64,000 nt of DNA from Verrucomicrobiota bacterium (GTDB lineage Bacteria; Chlamydiota; Chlamydiia; Chlamydiales; SM23-39), in NCBI GenBank assembly GCA_018968815.1, contig JAGWZL010000002.1:20834-84833 (forward strand), given 5' to 3'. Each line of letters begins with the position of its first letter. Positions within the stretch are counted from its first letter, which is position 1. Below are positions 56,140 through 57,706 of the stretch, piece by piece. Under the pieces are notes generated by a model, which was not told where the DNA came from, did no database searches, and saw only the letters and a list, made by a program, of their open reading frames with translations. A program made the position numbers and the translations under genes.

Positions 56140-56892
56140 TCAAGGTTTTGCTGCCTTATTGGATCCGTAGAGTAGGCCGGCTTTTGCTAGATTACTTTTT
56201 GCGTGGGGGAAGTGGGATTGCATGTTTTGGATGATTTGTTCAACGGCTTTTCTTTTAGAGTTTTGGCCGACGGGGCATTGGCAGGTGATGCGTGCGAAGC
56301 CGTATTGTTTGGCGAATTCTTTCAAGGAGTCTTCGGCTATGTAGATGAGGGGTCTGATGATGGTGACGCCGTAGTCGTGCATGAAGACTTTGGGCAAGTT
56401 GGCGGCGAACTCGCCTTTATGGAGCAAGTTGAGGAGGAGTGTTTGGGCGCTATCGTCTCTGTGGTGGCCGAAGGCGATGGTGGTGGCTCCGACCTCTTTG
56501 GCGGCGTTAAAGATGAGGGTGCGTCTTTCTCTGGAGCATCTGTAGCATTCTAAGTCTTCCCGTTTTTGTGTGGAGGATCTGGTGATGAAGGGGATATTGA
56601 GTTCGTGGCAAATGGTTTTTAAGAATCCCGTATCGATGCCGGCGCCGCAGGAGAATTCGCCGTCGACGTGGATGGCGAAGAGTTGGAAGTTGGGGAAGCC
56701 TCTGCCTCTAATGGCGTGGAGGAGAAAGAGGAGGCTGAGGGAGTCTTTGCCGCCGCTTAGGGCGATGGCGAGTTTATCGGTATTTTTATCGAGCAAGGAG
56801 AAATCGAAGAGGGCTTTTCTGAGGGTGCTTTCGAGTTCTTTGCCTAGGGTAGACCATGGGGGTTTTGCGAGGGGTATCCCGATATTGATCAT
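56140..56892 (-). CDS. ttcA: PP-loop ATPase of the TtcA family (tRNA 2-thiocytidine-type)
   Basis: ALSGGKDSLSL PP-loop, CYRCSRERR and CQCP cysteine pairs, and GHHRDD. I chose the internal ATG at 56892. Confidence 0.75.
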   Translation of the reverse strand: MINIGIPLAKPPWSTLGKELESTLRKALFDFSLLDKNTDKLAIALSGGKDSLSLLFLLHAIRGRGFPNFQLFAIHVDGEFSCGAGIDTGFLKTICHELNIPFITRSSTQKREDLECYRCSRERRTLIFNAAKEVGATTIAFGHHRDDSAQTLLLNLLHKGEFAANLPKVFMHDYGVTIIRPLIYIAEDSLKEFAKQYGFARITCQCPVGQNSKRKAVEQIIQNMQSHFPHAKSNLAKAGLLYGSNKAAKP

Positions 56893-56962
56893 AGAATGAT
56901 TGGACAATTTTGATTTTCCTATGATAGAATATGGGGGATTAAAATTGAACTGAAAGAAAGAT

Positions 56963-57220
56963 ATGAAGAAGGCTGGACGAAACGACCCCTGTCCTTGTGG
57001 GTCTGGGAAGAAGTTTAAGAAGTGCTGTGAGAGCATGATGCTTGGGGGTCGGTATATGGCGACCAGAGTGGATTTGGGGGCATCGCAGCAGATTCAGAAG
57101 ACGGTGAATATGGCGTCGTTTTTTCACAACCGGCTCTCGCAGACGCCGAAGAAGCCGATGCCGCCTGAGGCGATAGAGCCAGAGCAAGAAAATTTAGCGG
57201 AAAAAGAGAAGATTTGTTAG
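56963..57220 (+). CDS. small SEC-C motif protein
   Basis: The N-terminus reads [18 protein letters not shown]. Confidence 0.6.
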
Positions 57221-57233
57221 ATTTGTGACCTTT

Positions 57234-57306
57234 GCTGGCGTAGCTCAATTGGTAGAGCGCCCGACTTGTAATCGGATGGTTGAGGGTTCAAGTCCTTTCG
57301 CCAGCA
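57234..57306 (+). tRNA. tRNA-Thr (TGT)
   Basis: Acceptor GCTGGCG/CGCCAGC is perfect, the anticodon loop is CTTGTAA and the T-loop is TTCAAGT. The stems contain some wobble or mismatched pairs. Confidence 0.85.
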
Positions 57307-57317
57307 AGCTTTTGAAC

Positions 57318-57399
57318 GGGGGTGTCGCATAGCGGCAATTGCAGGGGACTGTAAATCCCCCACCTTCGGGTTTCGGCGGTTCGAGTCCGCCCGCCCCCA
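57318..57399 (+). tRNA. tRNA-Tyr (GTA), class II with long variable arm
   Basis: Acceptor GGGGGTG/CGCCCCC, anticodon arm GGGGA-CTGTAAA-TCCCC, a variable-arm hairpin and T-arm GGCGG-TTCGAGT-CCGCC. Confidence 0.9.
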
Positions 57400-57551
57400 A
57401 TAAGCAAAAAGCCAGGCCTTTGCCTGGCTTTTTTGCTTTTGGGGGTGGGAAAAACGCCCCTTGAATGGGGCGTTTTTAGGATGAGAAATGAGAACGCTGT
57501 CGTTTCGGCAGCGGGCGAATCGGCGGGAAGCCCGGAGTCCGCCCGCCCCCA
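57400..57551. repeat. repeat block R0: two bidirectional terminator hairpins plus a 74-nt pseudo-tRNA module ending in an exact 17-nt copy of the tRNA-Tyr 3' end
   Basis: Hairpin 1 is gccagg-cctttg-cctggc+T6 (57411-57434). Hairpin 2 is aaaaacgcccc-ttgaat-ggggcgttttt (57450-57477). gagtccgcccgccccca at 57535-57551 equals 57383-57399. Confidence 0.85.
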
Positions 57552-57585
57552 ATTCTCATAGACAAAATCACCAAAAAATAACTTC

Positions 57586-57609
57586 GAAAAAGGCGCCTCT
57601 TCGGCGCCT
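57586..57609 (-). terminator. intrinsic terminator downstream of dinD
   Basis: On the minus strand, aggcgcc-gaag-aggcgcct is followed by ttttcg. Confidence 0.55.
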
Positions 57610-57706
57610 CATTTACGCAAATTTTACGCACTTGACCACACGAATCCTTAGAGCAATTTCCAATAAGAGTTCTTAGAATCGGAAAATAAAAACCATTTCC
57701 CACGAT

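Follow-up and report, generated by a model that had tools for sequence, protein, structure and literature searches.

A 74-nucleotide sequence that ends like a tRNA occurs three times behind a tRNA-Tyr gene in the window (the whole 64-kb stretch of chlamydial DNA that was analysed). The question raised by this locus is whether such a module is the remains of a tRNA gene, a recombination (att) site or part of a structured RNA, all three of which the first-pass annotation had offered. Comparison with related genomes shows that each 74-mer is the core and tail of a structured non-coding tRNA-trailer element of about 111 nt, which is lineage-specific in environmental Chlamydiae. The element is real and non-trivial, and it is neither a tRNA relic nor a simple scar.

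The repeated module and the element that contains it

A pattern search finds the 74-mer without mismatch at 57478-57551 and 58733-58806 and with a single mismatch at 61800-61873, as had been reported, against a chance expectation from shuffles of 0 matches; the whole source genome (1.74 Mb in 51 contigs, 88% complete) contains no copy beyond these three. The module had also been described as better conserved than its neighbours. This holds when block 3 is compared with blocks 1 and 2 (12/81 differences in the hairpin-1/2 stretch and 1/74 in the module, Fisher p = 0.0026) but not between blocks 1 and 2 (3/80 and 0/74, not significant), and the roughly ten differences that had been placed between the first two blocks in fact separate block 3 from the other two. 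The sole difference within the 74-mer, T57482 versus C61804, sits in a base pair of the inferred fold, where it changes U.G to C-G and so leaves the structure unaffected. That the three cores are nearly identical is put down to selection on the fold, possibly with help from gene conversion.

ARAGORN identifies no tRNAs in the region other than a tRNA-Thr and tRNA-Tyr pair. The last 17 nt of tRNA-Tyr (57383-57399, GAGTCCGCCCGCCCCCA) are copied in every element, and of the 74-mer only its own last 17 nt, at the tRNA-Tyr-like 3' strand noted by the first-pass annotation, are tRNA-Tyr sequence (positions 57-73). The tRNA genes and the three copies of the element are arranged as follows.

57233..57307, + strand: tRNA-Thr(TGT), first of the tRNA pair (ARAGORN; Rfam tRNA model, 69.8 bits)
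57318..57399, + strand: tRNA-Tyr(GTA) (ARAGORN; Rfam, 52.2 bits)
57390..57449, + strand: H1, a long hairpin of which the tRNA 3' strand forms part (inverted repeat, terminator scan, RNA fold)
57441..57551, + strand: element copy 1, complete, 111 nt (model R1, 93.6 bits; fold; covariation)
57441-57449, + strand: a' of copy 1
57450-57477, + strand: H2 of copy 1, with A5/T5 tracts
57479-57484, + strand: hex5 of copy 1, GGATGA
57485-57487, + strand: junction GAA of copy 1
57488-57520, + strand: stem-loop SL1 of copy 1, with tandem G.A pairs
57521-57523, + strand: CGG of copy 1
57524-57534, + strand: hairpin X of copy 1, CGGGAAGCCCG
57535-57551, + strand: tail of copy 1, equal to tRNA positions 57-73
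58695..58806, + strand: element copy 2 with a', H2, core and tail (R1, 93.6 bits), including the 74-mer at 58733-58806
61762..61873, + strand: element copy 3 (R1, 93.8 bits), including the 74-mer at 61800-61873

Copy 1 starts 42 nt past tRNA-Tyr. H1 contains an inner terminator-like hairpin (57406-57433), and its 3' arm terminates in the 9-mer GGGGGTGGG (57441-57449), which is also a', the 5' strand of the closing helix of the element. The 74-mer represents the 3' two-thirds of the element, and in copy 3 the H1/H2 part is more diverged than the core. The tail agrees with the tRNA-Tyr end at 17/17 nt in all three copies and encodes no CCA. a' is complementary to tRNA positions 64-72 and hex5 to positions 57-62, with the terminator-like H2 between them, and the ends of the element zip into a helix of about 16 bp. 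A pairing of GGGGCG in hairpin 2 with CGCCCC at the 3' end, as first proposed, is unsupported: the partner of the 3' strand is GGGGGTGGG, which lies upstream of hairpin 2, together with GGATGA at 57479-57484. The supposed T-arm (ggcgg...ccgcc) likewise finds no backing in the comparison and does not covary in other tRNA types, whereas the hairpin cgctgtc-gtttc-ggcagcg is real, corresponds to SL1 and covaries in relatives.

Neither ARAGORN nor the Rfam tRNA model (E <= 10) calls a tRNA over 57478-57551, and no cloverleaf is present. Rfam 15 over 56500-62500 (E <= 10) returns the two tRNAs and palindrome-driven miRNA noise, with no RtT, tmRNA or ribozyme, and blastn against phage and plasmid collections gives no match. 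Several other candidates were judged by eye and rejected. The conserved strands misfit the cores of hammerhead and twister ribozymes, the tandem G.A pairs have no adjoining 3-nt bulge as a K-turn would, and the antisense of the tail, considered as a primer-binding site, lacks the TGG needed for a CCA end. A small ORF at 57488-57676 was dropped as coding since the three copies continue into unrelated sequence.

Distribution, fold and covariation

Searched at the DNA level, 100 genomes of the family gave partial matches, whose loci were then read for architecture, and the covariance model R1 was built from alignment A1. R1 finds the element in 27/103 genomes and 12/53 genera of the source family; among about 131 genomes that represent 26 other families of the class, just one has it. 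A pattern scan of 185,579 species leads to Chlamydiae/Parachlamydiales MAGs, a few being catalogued under different names. The element resides behind five kinds of tRNA, namely Tyr, Leu(CAA), Leu(TAG), Phe and Met(CAT). A same-strand tRNA lies at most 200 nt upstream in 30/46 instances, and the remainder are internal to arrays or located at contig ends. The common architecture consists of the tRNA, H1, a', A5-H2-T5, an A followed by hex5 (GGAnnn), GAA[A/G]TGA, a variable SL1, GAA[T/C]CGG, stem X with or without long inserts, and a tail that equals the local tRNA from G57 on. There are three units at the present locus, and tandem arrays occur in four relatives (G099:C130, G026:C4, G038:C9 and G052:C13). 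The source genome holds two more elements, one behind tRNA-Leu(TAG) on contig C23 and one behind tRNA-Phe on contig C15. The tRNA-Phe element (L064, G000:C15, 1034-1126) ends in ...TGGCCACCA, that is with CCA after the tail, and the tRNA gene itself has no CCA.

Covariation in this set is strong, and the arms of the element change with the tRNA that is served. In the alignment of 46 instances, double changes are seen at 17/17 modelled pairs of H2 and SL1. The alignment is fitted to R1, so the pairing percentages inherit the fit of the model: 92.5% of the H2/SL1 cells are paired, compared to 44-54% when the partner strand is slid, and 0/500 shuffles reach 92.5%. The three-way junction is lined by two conserved strands, GAARUGA and GAAYCGG, whose fourth bases pair with each other (A-U 21, G-C 17, C-G 1, G.U 2, mismatch 2) and extend SL1 by A-U, U-A and tandem G.A/A.G. 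Stem X appears as CGGG:CCCG, CGGA:UCCG, CUUUC:GAAAG, CCCC:GGGG and GCCC:GGGU.

The most telling covariation is the long-range pairing of hex5 and a'. The partner of hex5 is tail positions 57-62. The fourth hex5 base, the one in which copy 3 differs from the other two, tracks tRNA base 59. It is C for a T-loop with GAGTCC, with U (a G.U pair) in copies 1 and 2 of the window, A in 5/5 Phe loci (GATTCC) and U in 2/2 Met loci (GAATCC). a' follows the acceptor strand, reading GCCGGUG, GCCGGCG, GCCGAUG, GGGGGUG, GGCCAGA and others. The folding energy of 57438-57551 is -60.5 kcal/mol (z = -4.39). The search for covariation and excess conservation in other genomes, which the first-pass annotation had named as a possible refutation of its module, was thus run, and its outcome spoke against refutation.

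Trailer RNA or mobile DNA

The element is favoured to be a tRNA-trailer RNA rather than folded DNA, a reading for which E. coli offers a precedent. Its most likely function, to which about even confidence is given, would be that of a processed trailer RNA. SL1 contains 25 G.U against 13 A.C combinations, which favours an RNA of the + strand. Short-form elements carry cUUCGg and CUUG-type tetraloops, and the junction is purine-rich with tandem G.A pairs beside it. It is proposed that the acceptor-like closing helix lets the enzymes that process tRNA ends excise a discrete small RNA. RNase P would cut the 5' side and 3' trimming enzymes the tail, and the junction core would be the working part, probably binding a protein. 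The earlier suggestion of a tRNA-like small RNA comes nearest to this reading: it survives as a structured trailer element of RtT/TLR type whose closing helix is acceptor-like, the RNA form being predicted. The core sits behind two terminator-like hairpins, H1 and H2 (with invariant A5/T5), and the terminator/promoter scan finds no promoter-like site for it at the locus; its transcription would therefore depend on read-through, as argued by analogy only. An antisense role as the 3' UTR of the adjacent Bro-N gene was considered and dropped, as that gene has its own terminator (57603-57585) and the G.U excess favours the + strand. A closing helix that duplicates a segment of a tRNA gene would also suit folded single-stranded DNA, that is, a recombination site.

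The tail may have a second role. As a spare copy of a tRNA 3' end it would present a target for tRNA-directed integrative elements, which would explain why three cassettes start exactly past the three tails. The use of the tails as integration points is partly shown. The array is composed as follows.

57552..58637: cassette 1, with a Bro-N-domain gene at 57707-58558 (- strand) that has its own terminator
58620..58652, + strand: R* copy 1, AAAGTTCTGAATGC + GTCCAGCCGCCCCCA (repeat families D2 and D3)
58807..61704: cassette 2, with an ORF at 58912-59634 (+ strand), a DUF4431 gene at 59624-60418 (- strand) and a RhuM-family gene at 60452-61621 (- strand)
61687..61719, + strand: R* copy 2, 93% identical to the first (D3)
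61874..63043: cassette 3, with a Gp49/HigB-like gene at 62000-62357, an HTH antitoxin-like gene at 62345-62641 and an HNH gene at 62638-62970
63026..63115, + strand: third R* (core 63044-63058), then the palindromic terminator-like hairpin H1', which no element follows

Within 5.8 kb the tRNA end occurs in seven direct copies, which bound the three cassettes. Each cassette begins directly after a module tail and closes with R*, a T-arm-like sequence with an altered loop. The first two R* are followed by H1, and beyond the third there is only the hairpin H1', probably the original trailer of tRNA-Tyr, and then ordinary sequence. The R* tail GTCCAGCCGCCCCCA equals the tRNA-Tyr end of another species of the genus (G096) and is found as a variant or loose tRNA end in a metagenome run (X3). 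As the element tails match the host and the R* tail comes from the tRNA-Tyr of another species, the cassettes are of foreign origin. The motif R*, made up of AAAGTTCTGAWTRCGTCC and a variant acceptor strand, adjoins the start of a Bro-N/RhuM-type gene in every case; it is also present at five loci outside the window (L007, L040, L014, L056 and L074:3150-3185), with a tail unlike the host tRNA-Tyr. TTTYCCGGA is the left end of both cassette 2 and cassette 3; in two other genomes element tails are followed by a related one, CATCCCCGGAGAC. Four relatives (G093, G026, G102 and G084) encode Bro-N homologues of 38-48% identity behind elements, on the opposite strand and beside R*. The Bro-N protein matches phrog_8036 (function unassigned), and no relative with a solved structure was found by sequence. 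Public short-read contigs from four DNA runs support every junction of unique and repeated sequence; they break inside the repeats, and the order of the cassettes is accordingly that of the MAG contig alone.

A few further features of the array deserve mention. The Gp49/HigB-like toxin gene consists of two overlapping frames (62000-62206 and 62133-62357), probably as a result of a frameshift, and its HTH partner (62345-62641) is intact. The RhuM-family gene contains, in frame, a near-perfect palindrome of 180 bp (60869-61047; 81-nt arms, 89% complementary). This MITE-like repeat is present at 25 or more places in the source genome, several of which coincide with contig ends; in the metagenome contigs its depth is elevated and loose ends are numerous. 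Past the array, an open-ended ORF (63259-63999) has a bilobed hydrophobic stretch near its N-terminus that by eye is like that of chlamydial inclusion-membrane proteins.

The facts on mobile DNA fit either a resident trailer element with a spare attachment tail or a small mobile unit. The latter is the main rival reading, rated as possible but less likely than the trailer RNA: the unit H1-a'-H2-core-tail, with or without cargo and R*, would be an integrative element that has no integrase and uses a structured recombination site. Its folded single strand would rebuild the duplex of the tRNA 57-73 segment, which a recombinase acting in trans or the host XerCD would recombine with the tRNA gene or with another tail, in the manner of integron attC sites or of CTX phage with its folded attP. 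The cassette array would then have arisen by successive insertions. The arrays of diverged units in relatives (G099:C130 and G026:C4) look more like successive insertions than like a fixed gene. The element has been re-addressed to five kinds of tRNA in all three of its tRNA-matched segments, and one short-form core is joined to Tyr as well as Leu tails in relatives, as expected of a recombination junction. The direct repeat shared with the tRNA begins exactly at G57 in at least 12 loci, and three cargo-free loci (L041, L058 and L044) carry a second copy of the native terminator after the tail, as if after an insertion. The combination R*-H1-a'-H2-core recurs beside Bro-N-type genes in four relatives (G084, G026, G100 and G013), and the foreign tail of R* points to horizontal arrival. 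Furthermore, the + strand has the GC skew of a leading strand and would therefore be the lagging-strand template, which is transiently single-stranded.

Set against these points is the lack of a recombinase that travels with the element. PF00589 finds no integrase in the window, which is without any recombinase, and the source genome (88% complete) encodes only two tyrosine recombinases, both XerC/D-like and on other contigs, and no serine recombinase; PF01548, searched in this genome only, finds no IS110-type DEDD recombinase. The genomes G003 and G089 likewise have just two XerC/D-like enzymes and no serine recombinase. Some relatives encode tyrosine integrases of about 370 aa, with no consistent association to the element, and no enzyme was found to accompany it consistently among the relatives examined. 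In G084 the 3' end of one element adjoins a large serine recombinase fragment (L069, G084:C1, 5646-6802); this fragment retains the Recombinase and zinc-ribbon domains, the catalytic domain was not found, and a YhcG/PDDEXK nuclease gene is nearby. In the four DNA runs, whose contigs break in the repeats, neither an excision joint nor a pair of empty and filled sites was seen. The purine-rich junction, the tandem G.A pairs and the UUCG-type loops are more typical of RNA, and the presence of the element behind tRNA-Leu(CAA) in many genera fits a long residence. A further proposal is that of a re-addressable landing pad or mobile unit without its own integrase, in which a' and hex5, paired with the tail, would rebuild the duplex of tRNA 57-73 as a structure-specific recombination site for the host XerCD or another enzyme. 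Such a role is considered improbable, and if true would provide chlamydiae with a platform similar to an integron, on which gene cassettes are captured downstream of tRNA genes.

That the modules are plain att scars is very unlikely. They would then be attL, attR or attP leftovers of tyrosine-integrase islands piled up at tRNA-Tyr, alike through recent duplication or gene conversion, with a functionless fold upstream. In its favour are the seven tRNA-end copies clustered in 5.8 kb and a cargo that resembles that of mobile elements, and tycheposon islands contain arrays of partial tRNAs (bioRxiv 10.1101/2020.12.28.424599). A real integrase island also lies in the tRNA-Tyr of G026, and its left arm (TTCTCATAGACAAAATCA...TTACGCAAATTTTACGCAC, including the repeated TTACGCAAATTTTACGCAC) resembles the left 90 nt of cassette 1 (57552-57640), with the junction at 57551/57552. 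The island itself (L062, G026:C74, 1631-12553) measures 10.8 kb, encodes a tyrosine integrase of 363 aa and is bounded by a repeat of about 52 nt that reaches back to the anticodon loop; it displaces the H1-H2 trailer, and the core is diverged there. The att option of the first-pass annotation is therefore sound in so far as the 17-nt tail joins foreign DNA, but an att scar leaves the covarying fold upstream of the tail unexplained. Neutral scars would not retain compensatory changes across 12 genera and five tRNA types, units are found free of cargo and in genomes without an integrase, and inverted arms matched to the tRNA are not a product of integrase recombination. The scar reading is thus largely refuted by the covariation. 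Finally, a decayed tRNA-Tyr paralogue, suggested by the 17-nt identity to the tRNA-Tyr 3' end and the GGCGG before it, is almost certainly wrong, as ARAGORN and the Rfam tRNA model are silent on any cloverleaf, the identity (positions 57-73 only) stops sharply at G57 and the core recurs behind tRNAs for Leu, Phe and Met, in each case joined to the matching tail.

Comparison with known systems

Integron attC sites and the folded attP of CTX phage are recombination sites that act as folded single strands and are conserved in structure. Similar to these, the chlamydial array is punctuated by imperfect palindromic, structure-conserved sites between cassettes that include toxin-antitoxin genes, and the fold of one strand could rebuild a duplex target. 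Unlike an integron, the locus has no IntI-type integrase with attI and no attC R and L boxes, the conserved boxes being GAARTGA and GAAYCGG; the site is matched to a tRNA, and single-strand recombination is here a supposition. The bridge- and seek-RNAs of IS110/IS1111 elements belong with a DEDD recombinase, which the source genome lacks in the search described above.

CIMEs exemplify the tandem accretion of integrative elements at tRNA genes. The chlamydial locus resembles such accretions, the islands of tyrosine integrases and tycheposons in that partial tRNA 3' ends bound cassettes of mobile type behind a tRNA gene, and one junction in the window matches a real integrase island in G026. Direct repeats of the tRNA 3' end thus surround foreign DNA as they would at the att sites of a tyrosine integrase, but an integrase is absent from within the repeats and from the window, the genome having two XerC/D-like genes only. 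A covarying fold and inverted arms matched to the tRNA are moreover not needed by the att sites of such integrases.

The closest likeness is to the tRNA-linked repeats (TLRs) of E. coli, a term rarely used in the open literature that was searched. They were already known in E. coli in 1978, and to this day they largely lack an explanation. There are 22 of them at ten loci, with 1-5 per locus; they lie behind tRNA or rRNA genes, and their last 18-19 nt are those of the gene in front (Stenum et al. 2021, PMC8144298). Those of the rrn operons (RrA/B/F) have a terminator on either side, arise by processing of read-through transcripts and bind both Hfq and CsrA (PMC8144298). The RtT RNA (rttR) of the tyrT-tyrV operon belongs to the same background (Egan and Landy 1978; Bosl and Kersten 1991, as cited in PMC8144298). 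The tyrT units are built of short hairpins and start with GGGGAAGGAT, the exact complement of their own tail ATCCTTCCCC.

The chlamydial element is of the same design. In both cases the unit lies right behind a tRNA (or 5S in E. coli) on the same strand, opens with a stretch complementary to its tail, contains several short hairpins and ends in a copy of the last 17-19 nt of the gene (17 in the chlamydial element). Between one and five units occur per locus, terminators flank them, and the function is largely unexplained. The chlamydial unit differs in that its 5' arm contains the A5-hairpin-T5 module H2 and its core is a defined three-way junction, in its occurrence in another phylum and in the interleaving of units with cassettes at this locus. 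Its tail has no CCA because these tRNA genes do not encode CCA. Transcription has been shown in E. coli, whereas that of the chlamydial element is predicted. Homology between the two was considered on account of a shared AGGATGAGAA string and a similar hairpin but finds no support, since the core model R2 gives no significant match: at the tyrT locus of E. coli it scores at most 10.9 bits, and this only via the shared AGGAUGAGAA string. In the reverse direction RF00391 (RtT) has no match in the window at E <= 10. By the RF00391 and R2 searches the two have no detectable sequence homology, and the assignment, made by design, is secure.

The existence of a sequence-unrelated chlamydial family with the same design, whose arms are re-matched to each tRNA, suggests a widespread solution to a problem posed by tRNA operons or by resident elements. 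The family offers a well-defined fold, in which a three-way junction with two conserved strands is shut by a closing helix. The use of the tails as joints of mobile cassettes links two topics that are mostly handled separately, trailer RNAs in tRNA operons and the choice of tRNA genes by integrating DNA, and the locus at 57441-61873 contributes an element interleaved with cassettes together with a large comparative set.
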